From Pseudomonadota bacterium (GTDB taxonomy: Bacteria > Desulfobacterota > Desulfobacteria > Desulfobacterales > RPRI01), in the NCBI GenBank assembly GCA_043825875.1, contig JBDRRF010000067.1:42852-106851 (forward strand): a stretch of DNA of 64,000 nt, given 5' to 3'. The notes under the pieces were generated by a model. The model was not told the origin of the DNA, did not search any database, and saw nothing but the letters and a program-made list of their open reading frames with translations. The translations under genes were made by a program, and so were the position numbers. Below are positions 28,777 to 52,639 of this stretch, in pieces. Every line of letters starts with the position of its first letter. The stretch's first letter is position 1.

Positions 28777-29014
28777 AAGCCAACTCCTTTCTTGATATGA
28801 TTTTATAATAAAGATATTAAGGCATTAACTCTATATTACTACTATCACACATTAGATCCGGGAATATTTTTAGCATGTGTAATATACTTGATTGATTTGT
28901 AAAAATCAAATTTATTTGACAGTATTCATACCACGTTGTATTTTAATGAAATAAGTTTGATATTCTGAGCACTTTAAATAACTCACATTTGCTGTGTCAG
29001 AATACGGGGTGCAA

Positions 29015-30499
29015 ATGAGAACAAAAATATTCATCTTATTTTATACAGCTTGCCTGGTAACCTTTTTTTTGCCGCTAGCAGTTTTTGGAGCAGAAAATGT
29101 GCGAACACCAGCATATGCCGGTTCTTTTTATCCATCAGACAAGCAGAAGCTTGAACAGACCATAAGCAGCCTGACTCAAAAAACAAAGAATAAATCATTT
29201 ACTATTCCTTCCGGCAAAACACTAAAAGCTCTTGTTCTGCCTCATGCCGGTTATATCTATTCCGGGCCTACTGCTTCTTATGCATCTTTGGTTCTTTCTA
29301 AAAATCAATTTTCAAAAGTAATATTAATGGGTCCTGATCACAGGGTAGGTTTTAACAATTGCGCTCTTACCGATACGAAAGCATATGAAACTCCGCTTGG
29401 ATTTGTGAGAATCCACAAAGATGCAGCAAAATTAAGCAATAATAAGGAATTATTTAAATCTATTCCTGTTTCGGATAAATACGAGCATTCTATTGAAGTT
29501 GTTCTTCCTTTCCTGCAAACTTATCTTAATGAATTTGAAATTATTCCTATCGTTGTCGGTTCAGTTGATTATCAAGCTGTAGCAAAAGCTATAGAGCCAT
29601 TGCTTGATGACAACACACTGCTTGTTGCAAGCTCCGATCTTTCGCATTATTTAAAATACCAGGATGCTGTGAAAAAAGATCAGGAAACGATAAACATGGT
29701 ATTGAACCTTGAAAAAGAGAAACTAGTAAAGCATGATAACAGTGCCTGTGGTAAAATTCCTATCTTAACAATCATGGATCTTGTCGGTCAATTCGGATGG
29801 AAGCCGTTTCTTATTCATTATTCAAACAGTGGCGACACGGCCGGGGAACGTTCACGGGTTGTCGGATATGCAGCAATTGCTTTTTATGGAGAACCATATA
29901 TGAAAGAAAATAATAATGTTTCAAGCCGATTAAATGAAAAACAAGGACAAATACTGGTAAAACTTGCAAGGCAAACTATTGCAGACAAACTCGGAATAAA
30001 AAACAACCTGGGGCAGGTTCTAACCTCTATCAGTGAAGATATAAGTCTTAAAAGAAAAAGCGGCACATTCGTCACACTTAAAATCCATGACCAGCTTCGC
30101 GGCTGCATAGGGAATCTCGACAACTCAGAAACAATTACAGAAGGAGTTAAACGTAATGCCATAAATGCGGCATTTAATGATCATCGTTTTTCTCCTCTTA
30201 TTAAACAGGAATTTGAAGATGTTGAAATTGAAATAAGTATTCTTTCCGAATCAAAACCGCTTGAATATAAAGATGGCAAAGATCTTGTCAAAAAACTCCG
30301 TCCGAATGTTGATGGTGTAATTATCCGGAAAGGTTTTGCAAGTGCGACTTTTTTACCTCAGGTCTGGGAACAGTTGCCGCGTACCGAAGATTTTCTCACA
30401 CATCTTTGCATGAAAGCCGGTCTTTCTTCCGATGAATGGAAAAGCTCAAAACTGGAAGTCCTGACATATAATGTTCAATATTTTGAAGAGGAAAAATGA
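29015..30499 (+). CDS. amrB: AmmeMemoRadiSam system protein B (MEMO) fused to protein A (AMMECR1), with signal peptide
   Basis: AGSFYP, PHAGYIYSG, EHSIE, SSDLSHY, NSGD, VVGY; then GTFVTL, LRGCIG, TFLPQVWEQLP, LCMKAG. Confidence 0.92.
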   Translation: MRTKIFILFYTACLVTFFLPLAVFGAENVRTPAYAGSFYPSDKQKLEQTISSLTQKTKNKSFTIPSGKTLKALVLPHAGYIYSGPTASYASLVLSKNQFSKVILMGPDHRVGFNNCALTDTKAYETPLGFVRIHKDAAKLSNNKELFKSIPVSDKYEHSIEVVLPFLQTYLNEFEIIPIVVGSVDYQAVAKAIEPLLDDNTLLVASSDLSHYLKYQDAVKKDQETINMVLNLEKEKLVKHDNSACGKIPILTIMDLVGQFGWKPFLIHYSNSGDTAGERSRVVGYAAIAFYGEPYMKENNNVSSRLNEKQGQILVKLARQTIADKLGIKNNLGQVLTSISEDISLKRKSGTFVTLKIHDQLRGCIGNLDNSETITEGVKRNAINAAFNDHRFSPLIKQEFEDVEIEISILSESKPLEYKDGKDLVKKLRPNVDGVIIRKGFASATFLPQVWEQLPRTEDFLTHLCMKAGLSSDEWKSSKLEVLTYNVQYFEEEK

Positions 30500-32594
30500 A
30501 AGCCCTGTATTACTGGTAGTAATTGCAACGGGGATTTCTTCCGTTGTAACCCAGTTATTAACAATTCGCGAATTTTTGGCCCAGTTTCAAGGCAATGAAT
30601 TCGTTGTTGCCCTTATATTGTTTTCATGGCTTGTATTAGGCGGCATTGGGACTTTACTTTCACAATTGCACATTAAAAAAAGACTTCCTTCAGCTAAATT
30701 TCTTGGCTTTCTTTCCCTCCTGGTTGCACTACTTCCAGCTATACAGATTCTTTTGATAAGAAAACTTCGTGATGCTTTGTTTATACACGGGAGTTCAGTA
30801 GGATTTTATCCCACATTCGGATTTATTTTTTTAACAATATTACCTTATGCTGTTCTTATAGGTTTTGTGCTTCCGTACAGTCTTTTCGTGTTAAGATCTT
30901 TTCAGCCGGACTACTCCGGAACAAAGATATATATAGTCGACAATATAGGAGATATAGCCGGGGGCGCTTTTTTTTCTTTTTTACTTGTGTATTTTTTTTC
31001 ACCGTTTCAATCGATTTTCATATCAAACCTTTTTGTTCTTGGCGCAACATTTCTACTTTTAATAAACTCCGGAACCCGGCATATTAAGGCTATCATAGGC
31101 GTATGCATTACCCTTGCAATTCTTGTTTCAGGCCTTTTCCTTGAGAAAAGCTCTCTGCTGACACATGAAGGAAATCTTGTTTATTATAAGGAATCAAAAT
31201 ACGGACGTATTGAAGTGCATAAGGATAATGAGCAGTTTACTTTAATAGGTGACGGAGTTCCCTTATTTTCAAATCAGAATACATCAAATGCAGAAAAAAC
31301 TATTCATTACCCTCTTTCACAGGTATTGAATCCAAAGCATATTCTTATAATATCCGCCGAAGGCGGGATAATGGAAGAACTTGAGAAATATCACCCGGAA
31401 AGTATAGACTATATCGAACTTGACCCGGAAGTATCCGGTGTATTATTTGGTTTTGGCCTGCTGAAAAAAATTCCGGGGCTAAATGTGATCAACCAAGACG
31501 GGCGCTCGTATCTTTCACATTTGGATAAAAAATATGATGCAATAATTATCAACATGCCTGAGCCAGATACTTACCAGATTAACAGATTTTATACAGATGC
31601 TTTTTTTGGTACAGTCAAAAAGCGTTTATCGCCTCAGGGAATTTTAAGTTTTTCTATGGAAGGATACGATAACTATCTGGCAGAACCTCAACGTCAAAAA
31701 ATATCATCTGTTTATAATACGTTATCAAGGCATTTTAAAAAAATCCTTTTACTGCCTGGCCCCGAAATTTATTTTTTAGCTTCACAGGTTCCTGTTAATG
31801 CTGATATTCCTGATTTGCTGGACAAAAAAGGTATAAAAACCGATTACGTCAGCAATTTTTTTTATGGCAATCTCACAGAAGATAGAATCAGACATTTAAA
31901 AGAACTTATCGATTTATCTGCTCCGGTTAATACAGATAATTACCCTCAGCTTATGCGGATTATGTTTTTGCAATGGTTTGCAAAATTTTCAACATCTCCT
32001 GTTGCCTTTATTCTTGTTTTGTCAGTTTTATGCATAATTTACCTTTCACGAATAACAAAAGAAGAATTTGTGCTTTTTTCAACAGGATGTATGGAAATGG
32101 GAACAGAAATTCTTGTTATATTTGCGTTTCAGATTTATTTCGGATATATTTATCTTAAAATCGGTCTGATAATAACTGTTTTTCTTGCGGGTCTTCTGCC
32201 GGGAGCCTGGGCCGGAAACAAAATGGCAAACCAATACGATCATTTTAACAGGTCATTTCTTGCAATAACTGATGGGATTCTTATATTTCTTACAGGACTT
32301 CTGATTCTGGCTTTTTTAAAGGGCGGGGATAAGATTCCTTTATTTGTTTTTCTGGCATATGGTTTTATCGTATCAATGACATGCGGATTTCAGTTTCCCA
32401 CTGCTCTTAAGCTGATGGGAGACAATAATCCATCTGTGACAAGGCTGTTTTCAGCCGATCTTATCGGGGCAGCCGCAGGTACGCTTCTGATAAGTGTTGC
32501 TGTTATACCCTATTTCGGAATTATCTGGGCGGCAATTGCGCTGATCGGATTAAAATTTGTAAGCCTGATTTTGATACAGATTAAAAGAGCTTGA
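30471..32594 (+). CDS. Membrane-bound spermidine-synthase-like protein (TM-SpeE-TM)
   Basis: About 7 N-terminal TMs; ESKYGRI, IELDPEV, DGRSYL, YDAIII..PEP, NRFYT, NTD..P; C-terminal TMs. Start uncertain. Confidence 0.8.
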   Translation: MFNILKRKNESPVLLVVIATGISSVVTQLLTIREFLAQFQGNEFVVALILFSWLVLGGIGTLLSQLHIKKRLPSAKFLGFLSLLVALLPAIQILLIRKLRDALFIHGSSVGFYPTFGFIFLTILPYAVLIGFVLPYSLFVLRSFQPDYSGTKIYIVDNIGDIAGGAFFSFLLVYFFSPFQSIFISNLFVLGATFLLLINSGTRHIKAIIGVCITLAILVSGLFLEKSSLLTHEGNLVYYKESKYGRIEVHKDNEQFTLIGDGVPLFSNQNTSNAEKTIHYPLSQVLNPKHILIISAEGGIMEELEKYHPESIDYIELDPEVSGVLFGFGLLKKIPGLNVINQDGRSYLSHLDKKYDAIIINMPEPDTYQINRFYTDAFFGTVKKRLSPQGILSFSMEGYDNYLAEPQRQKISSVYNTLSRHFKKILLLPGPEIYFLASQVPVNADIPDLLDKKGIKTDYVSNFFYGNLTEDRIRHLKELIDLSAPVNTDNYPQLMRIMFLQWFAKFSTSPVAFILVLSVLCIIYLSRITKEEFVLFSTGCMEMGTEILVIFAFQIYFGYIYLKIGLIITVFLAGLLPGAWAGNKMANQYDHFNRSFLAITDGILIFLTGLLILAFLKGGDKIPLFVFLAYGFIVSMTCGFQFPTALKLMGDNNPSVTRLFSADLIGAAAGTLLISVAVIPYFGIIWAAIALIGLKFVSLILIQIKRA

Positions 32595-32647
32595 ATTATT
32601 TTTATCAATACTTTCGCACATATACTTAAGGCTATATGTTATAAATT

Positions 32648-33847
32648 ATGAATAAAATAAACAGAAGAAAATTTTTATGCAATGCAGCATTACTTCTTTC
32701 GGCTCCTGTTTCATCTTATGCCCTTTGGCCTTTTAGTGCGAAGAAAAGTGAAGCAGCGGGTTCGAATAACATTCGGGGCAGTATTTTTAAAGGAGATGCT
32801 CCTGATAAGCCTGGGAAATGGTCGCACGAAGCATTATTATATAAAAAGCTTGATAATAAAAAAGTGGCATGCGGAATATGTCCTCACAGATGTTTGCTGT
32901 CGCCGGGAGACAGAAGTGTATGCCGTGCAAAAGCAAACATAGATGGAGTATTATATAGCCTTTCGTACGGAAACCCCTGCACAGTTAATGTTGATCCTAT
33001 CGAAAAAAAACCACTTTTTCACTTCAAACCTCAAACAAAAGCTTTTTCAGTTGCAGCAGCCGGATGTAATTTCCGTTGCCTGAATTGTCAGAACTGGGAA
33101 ATTTCACAGGCCAAACCTGGCGAAGTGCGCCATACCGAGCTATTCCCCGAAGATGTTGTTAAGGCGGCATTGAAAACAGGTTCCGAATCAATCGCATGCA
33201 CATATTCCGAGCCGATTTCTTACATTGAATATATGCTTGATATAGCAAGTATTGCAAAAGAAAAAGGTCTTTCCAATCTCTGGATATCAAACGGATATAT
33301 AAACAATAAACCGCTGCGTAAATTATGTAAATATATTGACGGCGCTAATGTTAATATCAAATCTTTCAGTGACGAAATATACAGAAAATTAAACGGGGGA
33401 AGGCTTGAACCGGTTTTAAATACTTTTAAAACCATGAATGAAAACGGTATTCACTTTGAAATGACCAACCTTGTTGTACCTGGTTATACGGATGATGCCG
33501 AAATGGTTAAACGTATGTGCGGATGGATTCTATCTAATCTTGGTCCCGATCACCCTCTTCATTTCCTGCGCTTCTTTCCACAATATAAACTTGACAGACT
33601 TGTGCCTACACCTATATCGACACTCGAAAACTTTCGGGACATTGCGATCAATGAAGGAATTCATTATGCATACGTCGGCAATGTTCCGAATCATGAAGGG
33701 ATGAACACATACTGTCACAATTGTAAAAAACTGCTTATAAAACGAAAGGGCTATTTTATCCCTGAGTATAATATTTCTGAAAACAGATGTAAATTCTGCA
33801 ATACTATTATACCCGGCGTTTGGGGAAAAAATATAAGGATGGTTTAA
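32648..33847 (+). CDS. amrS: AmmeMemoRadiSam system radical SAM enzyme with twin-arginine signal
   Basis: CGICPHRC, DPIEKKPLFHF, CNFRCLNCQNWEISQ (CxxxCxxC), TYSEP, YVGNVP; N-terminal NRRKFL. Confidence 0.93.
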   Translation: MNKINRRKFLCNAALLLSAPVSSYALWPFSAKKSEAAGSNNIRGSIFKGDAPDKPGKWSHEALLYKKLDNKKVACGICPHRCLLSPGDRSVCRAKANIDGVLYSLSYGNPCTVNVDPIEKKPLFHFKPQTKAFSVAAAGCNFRCLNCQNWEISQAKPGEVRHTELFPEDVVKAALKTGSESIACTYSEPISYIEYMLDIASIAKEKGLSNLWISNGYINNKPLRKLCKYIDGANVNIKSFSDEIYRKLNGGRLEPVLNTFKTMNENGIHFEMTNLVVPGYTDDAEMVKRMCGWILSNLGPDHPLHFLRFFPQYKLDRLVPTPISTLENFRDIAINEGIHYAYVGNVPNHEGMNTYCHNCKKLLIKRKGYFIPEYNISENRCKFCNTIIPGVWGKNIRMV

Positions 33848-38382: not shown

Positions 38383-38646
38383 TTATGCAACATGCAAATT
38401 TAAATTCAGCGCGTCACATACTTTTATGTAAGTTACGATATTGCAGTTAGCTCCGTTCTCGATCTTAGAAAGTTGCTGCTGTGTAACTTGCGCTTTTTTT
38501 GCAAGTTGTATTTGTGATAATCCCGCCTTTTCCCTTGCCTCGGCAATCTTAATTGCAAGCTCGATCTGTTTTTTTTCTTTTTCAAAGGCTGCCTTAAATT
38601 TCGGGTCATTCATTTTTTCATTAAGTTTTCCTCTAAATGTTTTCAT
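38383..38646 (-). CDS. XRE-family HTH protein (orphan HigA-like antitoxin/regulator)
   Basis: DPKFKAAFE...AREKAGLSQ.QLAKKAQVTQQQLSKIENG. Confidence 0.8.
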   Translation of the reverse strand: MKTFRGKLNEKMNDPKFKAAFEKEKKQIELAIKIAEAREKAGLSQIQLAKKAQVTQQQLSKIENGANCNIVTYIKVCDALNLNLHVA

Positions 38647-39038: not shown

Positions 39039-39202
39039 GAGATCATTGAAAAATAGCCCCTCTCGCTCGATTTCAGTGTAAGGCTTAAATCTCGCACGGA
39101 GTGAAGCTTTAGCGCTATCCTTGAAATACTCAATATATTCCTGCGGCTGAAATTATCACCTTCCTTGAACTTGAGAAAAATTGAAAATTTTTAAGAGGTC
39201 TC
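39039..39202. mobile_element. MITE-like element, copy 2 (inverted, diverged, with ~22-bp insertion)
   Basis: Reverse complement aligns to 18698-18838 (e.g. TCAAG.TCAAGG, CAGGAATA....GAGTATTTC.AGGAT); ends GAGAtC...GGTCTC. Confidence 0.65.
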
Positions 39203-39219
39203 AATTTTTTCTCTTTTAG

Positions 39220-39759
39220 TTATTTTATCCAGTTTTCAAATTCAATTTCAATATCTCCACCAGAGATTTCATGAATTGGTGACATTGCATCATCCGTCAC
39301 AAGTATCAGGTTGTATGCCAATGCAACGGCCGTTATCCAAAGATCATTCTCCTGTATCTGAAGTTCTTTTGAAGTAGTTGGATCTTTCCATTCTTCAATG
39401 CGTTTTTTTCCGGCTGACTGACCTTTTTTTCGCCTTGGCGCATATTTATCATAAAGCTTTGCCCGGAGTAGAGAATAATGTTGTCGGGCGATATCGCAAT
39501 CAATAGTCAGGCAAGGATATCTTGTCAGAATACCAGCCAGTTGTTTGTATTTTTCTTTATGCGGATCAGCAAATGGTCCCACTCTGATACCGTATTCTAC
39601 TTCTCCGGCTGTGACAGGCGAAAGAAGTATTCTGGCGTTTTTCGGCAACGATTCAAGCTTCTCTCTTAACTGAATGCATTCACTGCTTTGACTGCCTGCT
39701 TCCAGTTCATGAATATATCGAATAATATTGGTGTCAAGCAAATAGTCTTTCTGTTTCAT
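39220..39759 (-). CDS. PIN-domain (VapC-like) ribonuclease
   Basis: YLLDTNII, VTAGEVEYG, ENDLWITAVA, LVTDD, i.e. all four acidic positions. ATG 39759 overlaps the MTase stop (ATGA). Confidence 0.85.
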   Translation of the reverse strand: MKQKDYLLDTNIIRYIHELEAGSQSSECIQLREKLESLPKNARILLSPVTAGEVEYGIRVGPFADPHKEKYKQLAGILTRYPCLTIDCDIARQHYSLLRAKLYDKYAPRRKKGQSAGKKRIEEWKDPTTSKELQIQENDLWITAVALAYNLILVTDDAMSPIHEISGGDIEIEFENWIK

Positions 39760-42290
39760 GGGATTTCCTGCCAAATCTCTTTTATATCCTTAAGCAACTC
39801 TTCGTCTGGTTGCTTTTGAATATTTTTCAGAATTTTTTCAGGTGTTGCCTCCTTATACTGATCCGAAATAAAAATGTGTAAGGGAATCCATGAAGCGTTT
39901 TCCGGGGGGATATAGCCCTTGAATTCAAAAGGTACTTTTCTTCGAGTATCGCCCCAAAATAAATCGAGCAACTGTCTTTCCAGTTTTGGAGGCAGGTTGT
40001 ATAGCTTTAGTATCTCCGCATCAATATGGAAAAGAAGTTCCTTTGCAGCTTCAGGGTCTGTATATTGAGTTGCTATATATTTGTTCACCAAAGATTGAAT
40101 GAATAAATCAGCTTTTTCAAAATTTAGTGGAACAGGTATGGAGCTATAAACTCTTGCAGAGATGTTCCGTTGGAAACTATGGGCGTAAACAAATGCTTGT
40201 GCAATAGGTGAATTTAGCAGAGCTGCCAGTAATTCTACATTTATAGTTTTTTGAGTTGGCCAAATTACGTAAAACATACGGCTGACAATACGGCCAGTAT
40301 TGTCAGTTGCAGCAGCATATCGCCATGGGCCTCTCGAAGTACGCGCTGTCGGCACAAGTACTTTAGGAAGATCCCAGTCCAAATCCCAGGCGCCTATCGC
40401 CCGTTTTCTTCTCAATTTTTCATTCGTATCTAAATAAACAATATCCTCTGCCACAAATGTTCTAAAACCTTCGCTTACTTCGTAAATTCCCGGTCTTGAT
40501 TCTGGAAAGGGTTTTGCCTGAATCACTTCATGACGTCTGTTTTTAATAATACCTGATTCATATTCAACTCCCTTTTTTATATCTATATATTTTTCGAGTT
40601 TAGGCAACACACCCAGATAACTCCATACTTCCCTTAACACAGGAACAATCAGCCTGTTTTGCTGATTTTCTGAGAAATAGATTTGCGGGACTTTGTCTTC
40701 CCATGTGGCTTCTGCATTCAAACGAAACCTTTCTTTGTGATGATCTTTTACTTCCCGATAGGTTGTCAGATTACCCTTTTTTGCTTTACGCTTCCTGGCC
40801 ACAAGTATAGCTGTTTCAGCTTCAGAATGAAGAAATATTTTATCAGGAAGAGCGGCTAAGGTTAGTATTTCAAAATCTTTAAGCAAAATGGATCGTTCGT
40901 TTCGATAATCTTTCCCGTCAAGAAAAGACCGCGGTAAAACCATGCCGATCATACCTGCCTGAGATATTGCAGGAAGAGCTCTTTTTAAAAGATATGCCGG
41001 TTTTGGCTGCTCCTTACCATTTACAATAAGTTTCTCAAAAGGCGGGTTGCCGATAAGAATTGTTGTTTCGGAAGTATTTTGTTCAAGAATCTTTCCTGAA
41101 AAAATATCCGCACGTTGCAAGTCCCAGCTGTTGGATTCCGGGAAATCGGCCAGCATCAAACACATTCGTGCAACTTCAATGGAAAAAGCATCAATCTCTA
41201 TACCGTGCAGTTTATCAACAAAGAATTGATGACGCTTTTTGCCGCTCCAGTTCGCCGGCAGCAGTTCCCGCATACGCCTCATGGCTGCAATCAAAAATAT
41301 TCCGTGCCCGCATGTTGGGTCCAGAAAATTCCATTCGTTTCTCGGCAATTCTTCAATTGGAAGCTGAGAGACAACATACTCCGCCACATATGACGGCGTG
41401 CTGTGAATTCCCATCTCTTTCCGGCTTTTTTCGGTGACAAAAGTATTTTCATATATGTATGTGAGAGTATCCACCGATATGTTTTTTAATGAAAAGATCC
41501 CACCAATTTCATCTGACATACAGCTTAATATGTCTTTAGGTATGTTTTTTATTAAAGGTTTTTCAGAGCTTCCGTAATATCCTGAAACAATTTTCAATAT
41601 TTGATCCGGGGATTTGAAATCGATATCGTTTGACTGTGGGATTGAGCTGTCTTTTATCAACTTTGCGGTAAGAAACCGAAATAATACCTGGAATATTTTT
41701 TGTGCATCAAATTTTATTTTATCTTTTAGATGCGCCTGTTCAACAACGTAAAGAATTCCTTTGATAACTCCATCCAGTTTTCTTGATGCTTCCGTCTCAA
41801 GTGCGGGCATTAATCCAATATCAACAAAATCAAGTTGTCTTGGTCCAGGTTTTTTGAAACCGGTTTTTGCACGAATCATCACTTCCGGTTCCCAAATCTC
41901 TTTTTTGCTTTTAATGAAATTTGGAAGCTGATCTGTTTTAATTTCATCTTCCGGAATTAATCGCTGCCCAGTGTTACGCCAGGTTCGTGTGATTCCATTT
42001 TGTATGATAAAGATGACAGGTGAACCAAAAGCTCGAAATTCATTTATCGAATCTTCATGAATGTCATCGCGCTTACGGAAATCAACGCCAAAGCAGGCAG
42101 AACGATAGTTCAGAGGTTCCTGCCCGAATACGCCAAGCTTAATATGACGGGTAAAGGCTGCTTTTTCAAAAAAATCGGCAAATTCATAATCAGACCGAAT
42201 TAGGTGATTTTTATAACCGATTTCTTTGAAAGCCGCTATTATTGGGCTTAAGTCTGTTGTGATATCTCCTGTATGCTGGATATTAATCAT
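39756..42290 (-). CDS. N6-adenine DNA methyltransferase, Type IIG-like architecture
   Basis: GIHSTP, motif I LDPTCGHGIFL, GIEID, motif IV IGNPPF, MVLP..FL, and a TaqI-C-like TRD (LLAALLNSP). Confidence 0.85.
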   Translation of the reverse strand: MINIQHTGDITTDLSPIIAAFKEIGYKNHLIRSDYEFADFFEKAAFTRHIKLGVFGQEPLNYRSACFGVDFRKRDDIHEDSINEFRAFGSPVIFIIQNGITRTWRNTGQRLIPEDEIKTDQLPNFIKSKKEIWEPEVMIRAKTGFKKPGPRQLDFVDIGLMPALETEASRKLDGVIKGILYVVEQAHLKDKIKFDAQKIFQVLFRFLTAKLIKDSSIPQSNDIDFKSPDQILKIVSGYYGSSEKPLIKNIPKDILSCMSDEIGGIFSLKNISVDTLTYIYENTFVTEKSRKEMGIHSTPSYVAEYVVSQLPIEELPRNEWNFLDPTCGHGIFLIAAMRRMRELLPANWSGKKRHQFFVDKLHGIEIDAFSIEVARMCLMLADFPESNSWDLQRADIFSGKILEQNTSETTILIGNPPFEKLIVNGKEQPKPAYLLKRALPAISQAGMIGMVLPRSFLDGKDYRNERSILLKDFEILTLAALPDKIFLHSEAETAILVARKRKAKKGNLTTYREVKDHHKERFRLNAEATWEDKVPQIYFSENQQNRLIVPVLREVWSYLGVLPKLEKYIDIKKGVEYESGIIKNRRHEVIQAKPFPESRPGIYEVSEGFRTFVAEDIVYLDTNEKLRRKRAIGAWDLDWDLPKVLVPTARTSRGPWRYAAATDNTGRIVSRMFYVIWPTQKTINVELLAALLNSPIAQAFVYAHSFQRNISARVYSSIPVPLNFEKADLFIQSLVNKYIATQYTDPEAAKELLFHIDAEILKLYNLPPKLERQLLDLFWGDTRRKVPFEFKGYIPPENASWIPLHIFISDQYKEATPEKILKNIQKQPDEELLKDIKEIWQEIP

Positions 42291-50094: not shown

Positions 50095-50202
50095 AACAAT
50101 TATTATAAAATATGATAGCTTTGCACAAAATATTATAAAAATTTATACCTAAGAAAAAAAAGACACCCATAATGCAAGTTTGCAAAAGGAGGAATGGTTG
50201 CA

Positions 50203-51315
50203 ATGAAAGATTATGGAATTCAATTGACCAAGGAAGAAGAAGCACAAGTTGATGATATTTGTGCCAAGATCAGAGAGCGGGTGAAAAAGGAACCCATTAC
50301 ACCCCGCCAGCGCTTTGAGGCTGTTTACAGAGGGGAAACGCCTGACCGCATTCCGATTCAGGTATGCGCCCTTGGTTTGCACGCAGCCTCCAATTACGGT
50401 GTAACACCTGGAGATTTATACAGTAAACCCAAAGTATCACTTTTAGCCTACCTTACACATCTCGAGAGATTTGGATATGATACTCCTTCCACTTTCCGTT
50501 TCAGCGCCGGTGAGAAGGAGTTTGGACAGGAAATAGCACATACGGATTCGGCCGTGCCGTTTGGTATTAAGGGAGTAGTGGAAACAGCAAAAGATCTCGG
50601 CAAGGTAAAATTGCCAAATGTTTACAAGGACGGTTCACTACCATGGCAGCTCTGGATGATCAGTGTTCTAAAGGAAAAACTTGGCGATATCATGCCTATC
50701 CACGGATTTACAGTTATTCCGGGTGCGGTTGGACCGGTTATCATGCCTATGGATAAGTTGTTATTGGCGCTTCGCAAGGATCCGGTTCTGGCACACTGTC
50801 TGGCTGCTTTGCTGATGAAGTTTGTTATTGATTACGGCACAGCCTTGTTCGAGGCAGGCGCCGATATGCTGAATATTGTAGGTATTGATGATCAGGTTTC
50901 ATATGCAATGCACAGGCAATTCGAATTTCCTTATGTCTGCGGTTTGCTTAAGTCCCTTCCGGGGCCCTGCTTTATAAATGGTGCCGGTGACTGGTCTCAT
51001 GTTCTTGAGTCATATGCCCAGGCAGGAATACATGGATTTTTCCTGCACAGCGGTCAACCCACACCTCTTGATAAGATTAATGAAGTGGCAGATAAATATA
51101 ATTGTACAGTACGCTATGGCGTTAGCGCCAACACGCTGGTACACGGGCCTGCTGAAAAGATCCGTGAGGAGGTAAAAAGCGTAATTAAACAGGGATGGCG
51201 AGGAGGCCGCTTTGTGTTGACCACAGACACATTGGATATAAATACTCCGACTGAAAACTTGGATGTCTTTATGGAAGCAGCCAGAGAGTATGGTAAACTT
51301 CCCTTAAAGGTTTAA
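50203..51315 (+). CDS. URO-D/MtaA-CmuA superfamily putative methyltransferase, copy 1
   Basis: TPRQRF....G..PDRIP, HG.AE.IREEVK, GGRFVL...TP.ENL..F.EAA.EYG; next to a corrinoid protein. Start set at the second ATG by RBS spacing. Confidence 0.8.
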   Translation: MKDYGIQLTKEEEAQVDDICAKIRERVKKEPITPRQRFEAVYRGETPDRIPIQVCALGLHAASNYGVTPGDLYSKPKVSLLAYLTHLERFGYDTPSTFRFSAGEKEFGQEIAHTDSAVPFGIKGVVETAKDLGKVKLPNVYKDGSLPWQLWMISVLKEKLGDIMPIHGFTVIPGAVGPVIMPMDKLLLALRKDPVLAHCLAALLMKFVIDYGTALFEAGADMLNIVGIDDQVSYAMHRQFEFPYVCGLLKSLPGPCFINGAGDWSHVLESYAQAGIHGFFLHSGQPTPLDKINEVADKYNCTVRYGVSANTLVHGPAEKIREEVKSVIKQGWRGGRFVLTTDTLDINTPTENLDVFMEAAREYGKLPLKV

Positions 51316-51354
51316 GAATACCAACAAAGGATGAGCTGATTGAAAAGAGATATT

Positions 51355-51430
51355 ATGACTCAAGATACAATCTACCCCGGATGGGGATTCGGATCAAACA
51401 CAAAGAGTATGCGGCGAAGCGATTGTATGC
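51355..51430 (+). pseudogene. 5' relic of the corrinoid-protein gene left by tandem duplication
   Basis: AGCTGATTGAAA.GAGATATTATGAC.CAAGA matches the start of the 52674 gene; residual MTQDTI...DGDSDQTQRVCGEA versus MTQEAI...DGDAEQTQKVCGNA. Confidence 0.75.
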
Positions 51431-51526
51431 AAAATATGATAGTTTTGCACAAAATATTATAAAAATTTATACCTAAGAAAAAAAATACACCCATAATGAA
51501 AGTTTGAAAAAGGAGGAATGATTGCA

Positions 51527-52639
51527 ATGAAAGATTATGGAATTCAATTGACCAAGGAAGAAGAAGCACAAGTCGATGATATTTGTGCCAAAATCAGAGA
51601 GCGGGTGAAAAAGGAATCCATGACGCCCCGCCAGCGCTTTGAAGCTGTTTACAGAGGGGAAACACCTGACCGCATTCCAATTCAGGTATGCGCCCTTGGT
51701 TTGCACGCAGCCTCCAATTATGGCGTAACACCTGGAGACCTATACAATGACCCGAAAATATCACTCATGGCATATCTTACACATCTCGAAAGATTTGGAT
51801 ACGACACTCCTTCAGCTTTCCGTTTCAGTACCGGTGAAAAGGAGTTTGGGCAGGAAATAGCTCATACGGATTCCGCCGTGCCCTTTGGTATCAAGGGTAT
51901 AGTGGAAACAGCAAGTGATCTGGGCAAGCTGAAAATGCCTAATGTTATGACAGACGGATCATTGCCATGGCAGCTATGGATGCTAAGTGTTCTAAAGGAA
52001 AAACTTGGCGATATTATGCCTATCCATGGATTTACGGTAATTCCCGGTGCAGTAGGTCCGGTTATAATGCCTATGGATAAACTTTTACTTGCGCTTCGCA
52101 AGGACCCTGTACTGGCTCACTCTCTGGCAGCCATACTTATGAACTTTGTTATAGATTACGGTACGGCAATGTATGAGGCAGGTGCTGATATGCTGCATAT
52201 TGTTGGAATTGATGATCAGGTATCATATGCTATGCACAGGAAATTTGAATTTCCTTATGTTTGCGGATTGGTTAAATCATTGCCGTGCCCTGTCTTTATA
52301 ATTGGCGCAGGTGACTGGTCACATGTTATTGAGTCATATGCTCAGGCAGGAGTTCAAGGATTTTATCTCCACAGCGGACAACCTACACCTCTTGATAAGA
52401 TTAATGAAGTGGCAGACAAATATAATTGTACAGTACGCTATGGCGTAAGTTCCAACACACTTGTACATGGACCGGCAGAAAAGATTCGTGAGGAAGTGAA
52501 AAACGTAATTAAACAGGGATGGCGGGGCGGTCGTTTTGTATTGACCACAGACACATTGGATATCAATACTCCGACTGAAAACCTGGATGTTTTTATGGAA
52601 GCAGCTTTAGAGTATGGTAAACTTCCATTAAAAATTTAA
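51527..52639 (+). CDS. URO-D/MtaA-CmuA superfamily putative methyltransferase, copy 2
   Basis: About 35 substitutions versus copy 1 over 373 aa by manual count; same motifs. Confidence 0.8.
   Translation: MKDYGIQLTKEEEAQVDDICAKIRERVKKESMTPRQRFEAVYRGETPDRIPIQVCALGLHAASNYGVTPGDLYNDPKISLMAYLTHLERFGYDTPSAFRFSTGEKEFGQEIAHTDSAVPFGIKGIVETASDLGKLKMPNVMTDGSLPWQLWMLSVLKEKLGDIMPIHGFTVIPGAVGPVIMPMDKLLLALRKDPVLAHSLAAILMNFVIDYGTAMYEAGADMLHIVGIDDQVSYAMHRKFEFPYVCGLVKSLPCPVFIIGAGDWSHVIESYAQAGVQGFYLHSGQPTPLDKINEVADKYNCTVRYGVSSNTLVHGPAEKIREEVKNVIKQGWRGGRFVLTTDTLDINTPTENLDVFMEAALEYGKLPLKI

Follow-up and report, generated by a model that had tools for sequence, protein, structure and literature searches.

In Ronin, found in Escherichia coli ECOR55, HsdMS suppresses the toxin RonA until anti-restriction proteins appear, and an intact NPPF motif is no proof that catalysis is needed (10.1101/2023.04.06.535777). 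A comparable arrangement is found in the window, the stretch of 64,000 nucleotides analysed here, which comes from a Pseudomonadota bacterium (GTDB lineage Desulfobacterota, Desulfobacterales, RPRI01; assembly GCA_043825875.1, contig JBDRRF010000067.1, positions 42,852 to 106,851 of the forward strand). On its minus strand, the open reading frame (ORF) of a Type IIG-like N6-adenine methyltransferase (MTase; 844 aa, 42290-39756; classed by Pfam and its AF2 model), which has an apparently dead nuclease domain and an antitoxin-like C-terminal tail, is directly followed by that of a VapC-like PIN RNase (179 aa, 39759-39220). The Type IIG layout, the MTase motifs and a diversifying target-recognition domain (TRD) are kept, the nuclease residues are lost, a toxin-like gene follows obligatorily and the tail is swapped together with it. 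We hypothesized that the pair is a two-gene abortive anti-phage or anti-plasmid system derived from a Type IIG enzyme, in which a nuclease-dead sensor would cage a toxin and release it on meeting a DNA mimic or DNA that is unmethylated, an interpretation that we consider reasonably probable from the sequences.

Closest described systems

The likeness to Ronin lies in a restriction-like MTase without a nuclease, tightly linked to a toxin that in Ronin is suppressed, with release by anti-restriction proteins proposed (10.1101/2023.04.06.535777). Unlike the separate Type I HsdM and HsdS of Ronin, the window encodes a single IIG-type chain with its own TRD and what we read as a dead nuclease domain, and there is no hsdS in the island that holds the pair. 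Where Ronin has one 61-aa membrane toxin, RonA, the window has a putative fused antitoxin tail and a 179-aa PIN protein, with at least five unrelated effector folds in the family; no short membrane peptide was found as effector among 104 clustered partners. PrrC-EcoprrI likewise has an RNase toxin kept inactive by a restriction-modification (RM) protein as a second line of defence (PMC3710099). However, PrrC is an ABC-ATPase-HEPN fusion in a working hsdMSR locus, whereas the window pair has no working nuclease and no ATPase domain was found in its MTase or PIN protein by Pfam and NCBIfam; a methylase-fused antitoxin is not mentioned in the consulted part of the PrrC text. The Panacea (PanA) antitoxins also join a constant domain, proposed to be a sensor, to exchangeable neutralisers paired with unrelated toxins (PMC10440598). 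Unlike theirs, the constant part here is a 790-aa DNA methyltransferase with a TRD: the string "methyl" is absent from the main text of that paper, and no Panacea domain was matched by Pfam in the window MTase or 24 homologs.

DrdV (7lo5) and BpuSI (3s1s) resemble the window MTase in combining a nuclease fold, a helical domain, an N6-MTase and a TRD on a single chain, but the window MTase has no conserved nuclease catalytic residues, an extra C-terminal tail and an obligate downstream toxin. VapBC, with VapC of the tRNA-fMet-cleaving group (3tnd, 6ifc, 3zvk, FitB), shares the PIN fold, the four acidic residues and a toxin translationally coupled behind its partner. Unlike in VapBC, no small VapB gene is present (the window, like 75 of the best 80 PIN loci, has the MTase ORF in that place), the PIN protein has a clade-specific insertion of ~26 aa, and the MTase tail would take the place of the partner. 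NCBIfam models of BREX PglX, DISARM DrmM and MADS MAD2 scored 13-40 bits against cut-offs of 400-900, with no partner genes of these systems in the island. NCBIfam and PADLOC 2.0 profiles gave only partial, sub-cut-off MTase matches to the MTase, and PADLOC 2.0 gave none to the PIN protein. An earlier interpretation of this locus from the letters alone (the sequence-only reading) had presented the pair as a candidate for an undescribed defence or addiction system. The pair would work like Ronin, PrrC and Panacea but belongs to none of them, nor to Type IIG or VapBC. No description of this MTase-toxin system was found in the literature searched, beyond which supplementary candidate tables or subscription papers could list the pair; it is a real modular system that has probably gone undescribed.

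Architecture of the methyltransferase

The AlphaFold model of the MTase had a mean predicted local distance difference test score (pLDDT) of 84. Its whole-length fold matches were DrdV and BpuSI; the DrdV alignment covered aa 4-765 (Z 21.3, root-mean-square deviation (rmsd) 9.4, 629 residues aligned), and aa 270-770 matched CamA and M.BseCI (Z 24-26). Nuclease fold, helical domain, N6-MTase and TRD therefore lie on one chain, as in Type IIG enzymes.

The restriction-endonuclease-fold domain (aa 14-145, 41856-42251, minus strand) was also folded by itself (pLDDT 87) and compared with 48,161 chains, among which BpuSI (Z 8.5, rmsd 3.5, 122 aligned) and DrdV (Z 8.3, rmsd 4.9, 140 aligned) ranked first, followed by other restriction-fold proteins and HsdR; the Z scores are modest and the top of the list is consistent. 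Foldseek alone returned no match below 1e-3 for this domain. On strands 50-56 and 64-69, no acidic or lysine conservation was found in 83 aligned N-termini or in 145 sequences, the catalytic strands being assigned from known topology rather than from a residue-level alignment. The position of D39 is acidic in 82% and that of K142 conserved in 95% of the 83 sequences, both off the core strands. We read the domain as a dead nuclease, with the strand assignment inferred from topology. This agrees with the sequence-only reading, which had placed the N-terminus at the nuclease position of Type IIG enzymes without seeing a PD-(D/E)xK motif.

The SAM-dependent N6-MTase domain (SAM, S-adenosylmethionine; aa 271-520, 40731-41480, minus strand; Pfam N6_Mtase 1.6e-15) contains motif I, DPTCGHG (aa 324-330, 41321-41301), and motif IV, NPPF (aa 415-418, 41048-41037). 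G328 and N415 are each present in 145/145 representatives and NPP(F/Y) in 142. The TRD that follows (aa 566-684, 40239-40595, minus strand) is TaqI_C-like (Pfam 5.4e-5, below the cut-off), and the CamA/BseCI alignment extends to aa 766-772. Among the six closest full-length homologs tabulated, it diverges more than any other region (59-73% versus 70-90% elsewhere). The closest named relatives of the MTase come from Desulfobacterota metagenome-assembled genomes. A flexible linker of low confidence (aa 145-159, pLDDT <50) carries a QLDF motif (aa 152-155, 41826-41837, minus strand), with Q152 present in 139/145 representatives and variants seen; the motif looks like a possible sliding-clamp-binding motif.

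The PIN partner

An ATGA overlap joins the MTase stop to the PIN start (ATG 39759), and the junction is identical in three related loci (L002, L005, L006). A longer TTG start at 39774, given by the ORF finder, is not conserved, and the ATG was therefore preferred. The protein matches Pfam PIN (2.3e-8), and its closest solved relatives are VapC toxins. Its four catalytic positions D9, E53, D139 and D157 are intact, being acidic in 68/68 aligned PIN partners and invariant in 75/75 aligned database matches. The basic insertion (aa ~105-132, 39447-39364, minus strand) is specific to the clade, with a family mean of 26 aa and a mean net charge of +3. Neither the ORFs nor Pfam revealed a separate antitoxin, restriction endonuclease, HsdR or HsdS between gatB and DUF2065-queA. 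The sequence-only reading had already described the 844-aa N6-MTase, the overlap, the four acidic positions, the long basic insertion and the lack of an adjacent VapB-type antitoxin or restriction partner, and was right in all of these.

Obligate coupling to an effector gene

A profile search with the MTase found 748 representatives (50% identity clusters) at E <1e-30 among 1.84 billion. We examined 123 loci (41 from a first collection, 3 from plasmids and 80 among the matches listed by a motif scan, less one duplicate), of which 6 were not family members and 13 without a 3' end were dropped; 40 short flankless loci were left uncounted. Among the 104 loci kept, some are near-identical, and such kin are not independent. 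Two separate clusterings were made, one of the MTase stretch beyond the conserved core and one of the protein encoded next.

A same-strand toxin-like effector gene lies directly behind the MTase in 104/104 complete loci, starting between -23 and +24 nt from the MTase stop (within 20 nt in 101). The effector belongs to the window PIN clade in 74 loci (3 of them broken) and is an HNH nuclease related to Septu PtuB in 16, HEPN-like in 9, RES in 2, another PIN in 2 and, in a single case, a metallo-hydrolase with the metallo-beta-lactamase fold. The HEPN label comes from Pfam matches of 7e-4 and 0.019, both under the cut-off, and from RefSeq names of relatives. With L122 included, in which one other gene intervenes, the window PIN clade occurs in 75/104 loci, and another effector only is present in 29. 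Of the conserved MTase-PIN pair that had been predicted, the coupling stands for all 104 loci and the exclusive choice of PIN does not. On a FastTree tree of 94 cores with tails removed, parsimony placed PIN at the root and required a minimum of 10 switches of effector; one HEPN-type member clusters with the closest relatives of the window (support 0.89).

The coupling also holds in the other direction. For the best 80 of 403 PIN relatives, many of which overlap the 104 family loci, 75 genes lie directly behind the MTase, 3 behind an inserted second pair, 1 at a contig edge and 1 as a truncated orphan, so that the clade is linked to the MTase in 78 of 79 informative loci.

Family loci were found in Desulfobacterota, Nitrospirota, Planctomycetota, Chloroflexota, Proteobacteria, Verrucomicrobiota and others. 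Cultured carriers of the pair include Thalassospira profundimaris (L116), Wenxinia marina (L055) and, on a plasmid, Sinorhizobium chiapasense (L045). Three of 72,556 plasmid records carry copies, none of 50,697 records of a phage collection did at 80% coverage, and one of five pattern matches on viral contigs is a family member. A viral contig also holds a fragment of the window PIN clade behind an 804-aa ATPase-like ORF, without the MTase (L252:3301-6249).

The C-terminal tail as a probable antitoxin slot

The last 50-190 residues of the MTase change along with the effector class. In the 104 loci, tail A accompanies PIN in 74; tail C accompanies HNH in 14, with a related tail in 2 more; and tail B accompanies the HEPN-like effector in 8, with a related tail in 1. 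Xre/MbcA/ParS tails precede RES in 2 loci, and single tails precede the metallo-hydrolase and two other PIN clades. Among 145 representatives, tail A was counted in 90, C in 18, B in 3 and other tails in 34. In the window, the type A tail spans aa ~792-844 (39759-39917, minus strand), and its putative role as the cognate PIN antitoxin rests on this class tracking, on the Xre/MbcA/ParS tails that occupy its slot before RES and on co-variation with PIN: tail identity follows PIN identity after the core is removed (partial r 0.55, compared with -0.24 to 0.20 for 13 core windows).

Some tails match an antitoxin domain or also occur as separate genes. The RES-linked tail is Pfam Xre_MbcA_ParS_C (P0377 passes the cut-off with 8.7e-6, whereas L047 stays below it with 1.5e-4), and the next gene is RES in L047 and L114. 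RES is the known partner of the Xre/MbcA/ParS antitoxin domain. Among 48,095 ORFs, a tail-B profile matched a free 119-aa gene of a Gloeothece plasmid that precedes a HEPN gene (E 2.4e-9). ESM Atlas assigned tail B to no family (best 0.88); it may resemble a minimal nucleotidyltransferase fold. For the best 80 of 545 metagenome HNH relatives, tail C was present on the upstream ORF in 80/80, that ORF being this MTase in 58 and another carrier in 22. The latter include small free ORFs (L281, L288, L302, L313), a helicase (L306) and some fragments at contig edges.

In L204, L205 and L217 (=L122), an intact tail A is followed by a second helical tail, then by a different PIN and only then by the original PIN; these loci appear to be new toxin-antitoxin (TA) pairs caught while inserting in frame. 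Taken together, the co-swapping, the Xre/MbcA/ParS tail and the stand-alone tails point to the C-terminal tail of the MTase itself as the most likely "missing" antitoxin, and in the window this tail is very probably the cognate antitoxin that would keep the PIN protein inactive. The proposal that the MTase acts as antitoxin therefore survives in its coupling and its general idea, with the role moved from the whole enzyme to a swappable tail.

Two further MTases (P0300 and P0342) have a RelE/Gp49-like domain at the C-terminus (seen by eye, apart from a Pfam Gp49 match of E 0.1 in P0342), and the slot possibly holds a toxin there rather than an antitoxin. In L306 (565-3492), tail C is fused to a DEAD-type helicase of ~950 aa with BrxH/SngC-like matches, which suggests that other defence sensors use the same socket as the MTase.

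Proposed mechanism and rival explanations

According to our hypothesis, the MTase would methylate its own site in the host genome and would consequently be idle on self DNA. The trigger would be its engagement with sites left unmethylated on phage or plasmid DNA that enters the cell or, alternatively, the occupation of its DNA-binding cleft by a DNA-mimic anti-restriction protein; the sequence-only reading had named SAM depletion as a further possible trigger. A conformational change or turnover of the MTase might then release PIN, which would cut tRNA or other RNA, halt translation and abort the infection, so that the toxin would substitute for the lost nuclease as the output of the system. 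A trigger at the DNA-binding cleft is favoured because catalysis and a diversifying TRD are both retained. More tentatively, and short of even confidence, the family may represent a widespread class of "restriction by suicide", in which a IIG enzyme that still reads methylation would have given up its nuclease and gained a universal antitoxin socket, and would fire any toxin plugged into it (PIN, HNH, HEPN-like, RES or metallo-hydrolase) on recognising unmethylated foreign DNA. With the same tentativeness, new TA pairs could turn into effectors by in-frame insertion at the MTase 3' end.

Several observations weigh against this proposal. The data fit a DNA trigger, a mimic trigger and plain addiction alike. 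Tail A was found neither as a stand-alone gene, including in its own genome, nor in Pfam, so that its role rests on position and co-variation; linkage by itself could yield the co-variation, and the control windows belong to the core. In 76/145 representatives Ala or Ser replaces the second glycine of motif I, and SAM use may therefore differ. Over wider sets the TRD varies no more than the N-terminus does, and three MTases (L019, L124, L125) are followed by a broken PIN. The defence-island setting that had been foreseen holds for some loci and not for most: of 114 nearest-neighbour ORFs at 58 motif-found loci, a handful are defence-like (AbiEii, TIR, TacA, DUF5615) and the rest mostly housekeeping or without a Pfam match, in a scan that had no control.

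The most durable competitor, which we nevertheless consider unlikely, is addiction or hitch-hiking, with type II TA pairs joining an orphan MTase in frame at its 3' end and no sensing involved. The MTase would then serve as a stabilising or autoregulatory N-terminus of the antitoxin, and the toxin would retain the cassette together with its methylation pattern, a view to which we give the same low weight. Second pairs inserted in frame behind an intact tail A (L204, L205, L217) speak for it, as do the several unrelated carriers of tail C and the patchy occurrence of the pair (1/16 other same-genus genomes), often between housekeeping genes, with 3 plasmid copies. Yet no intact family locus among the 104 lacks a toxin, and the dead nuclease domain, the catalytic motif and the TRD have been retained over 30% identity divergence. 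Moreover, the PIN clade hardly occurs apart from this MTase (linked in 78/79 informative loci), unlike free VapBC, and an antitoxin of 840 aa would be costly for that purpose alone.

Improbable by our estimate is a two-subunit restriction system, whose partner would be recruited to unmethylated sites and would destroy the invader's nucleic acid locally, with no suicide. Although 16/104 partners are HNH nucleases related to Septu PtuB and the basic insertion of PIN could bind nucleic acid, the remaining partners are toxins of the RNase type (PIN, HEPN-like) or RES, a known antitoxin domain forms the tail linked to RES, and the same tails precede the same toxins as stand-alone genes without any MTase. 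A working Type IIG enzyme whose nuclease site is unusual, next to an unrelated PIN gene, is more improbable still, since, despite the IIG nuclease fold of its N-terminal domain and the conserved D39 (acidic in 82%) and K142 (95% of 83 sequences), the topology-assigned strands for the putative D and (D/E)xK read L-A-A-F and S-A-C-F-G-V, with no acidic residue or lysine, and coupling is obligate both from MTase to effector and from PIN to MTase.

Genomic context

The pair had been placed in an island between gatB and queA, which is borne out by synteny and not by GC content (39-41% versus 36-39% around). In the same-genus genomes G001, G002, G004 and G012, the gap between gatB and DUF2065-queA is ~180 bp. 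At this site G014 has a Phd-PIN pair, G003 and G009 have similar ORFs, and the close relative G008 has a cassette of AIPR, DUF4420, HNH, Dcm (C5-methylase) and ORF6N (L258, G008:C70:77600-85400). The site is thus a hotspot for defence and TA cargo. The MTase-PIN pair itself occurs in 1 of 16 other same-genus genomes, on a different contig.

The sole other ORF of the island encodes an orphan HTH_3 protein (HigA/HipB-like, 87 aa, 38383-38646, minus strand), which we regard as an island passenger. It is not conserved beside family homologs, has a 288-bp match in G016, and has no toxin partner that we could find: there is no toxin ORF upstream and no Gp49-type toxin alongside. Behind the PIN gene lies a dispersed non-coding repeat of ~170 bp with hairpins (39040-39205), which gave 149 BLAST hits on 57 contigs of its own genome (36 of at least 100 nt) and many in same-genus genomes; it is similar to a miniature inverted-repeat transposable element or a repetitive extragenic palindrome and is probably not part of the system. 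Scans of the locus for promoters, terminators and repeats gave chance-level results, with no att-like repeats.

At least 11 hand-picked loci touch known or candidate defence genes: Type I RM in L008, L018, L029, L030 and L035, Type IIG in L020 and L047, DRT in L009 and PADLOC candidates in L017, L037 and L046. These neighbours come from 31 proteins chosen by eye and are no measure of enrichment. One family locus adjoins Shedu and one sits in a viral contig. A MerR-like gene lies upstream in 23/92 loci and is absent from the window, and is therefore taken as accessory. Some of these MerR-like proteins end in Q-x-x-L-x-F-P (e.g. L073:4382-4903, L092:4355-4903), an ending that presumably resembles sliding-clamp-binding motifs.

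Elsewhere in the window, two tandem 373-aa paralogs (50194-52639) look by eye like uroporphyrinogen-decarboxylase-family methyltransferases of the MtaA/CmuA type. An AmmeMemoRadiSam-like cluster, also recognised by eye, lies at 28994-33847 and comprises a fused B-A protein, a spermidine-synthase-like membrane protein and a radical SAM protein.

Significance

If the proposed mechanism is true, the MTase and its partners would form a large defence family that spans many phyla, comprises 748 clusters (50% identity) and is now annotated only as "N-6 DNA methylase", and some "orphan" or presumed IIG methyltransferases would be sensors. The family would provide a direct route for free TA pairs into immunity, with L204, L205 and L217 as genome intermediates. 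The pairing of tails with toxins also provides HNH, HEPN-like and PIN clades that are still uncharacterised with candidate antitoxins. Should the socket function as proposed, it would constitute a modular switch gated by DNA methylation.

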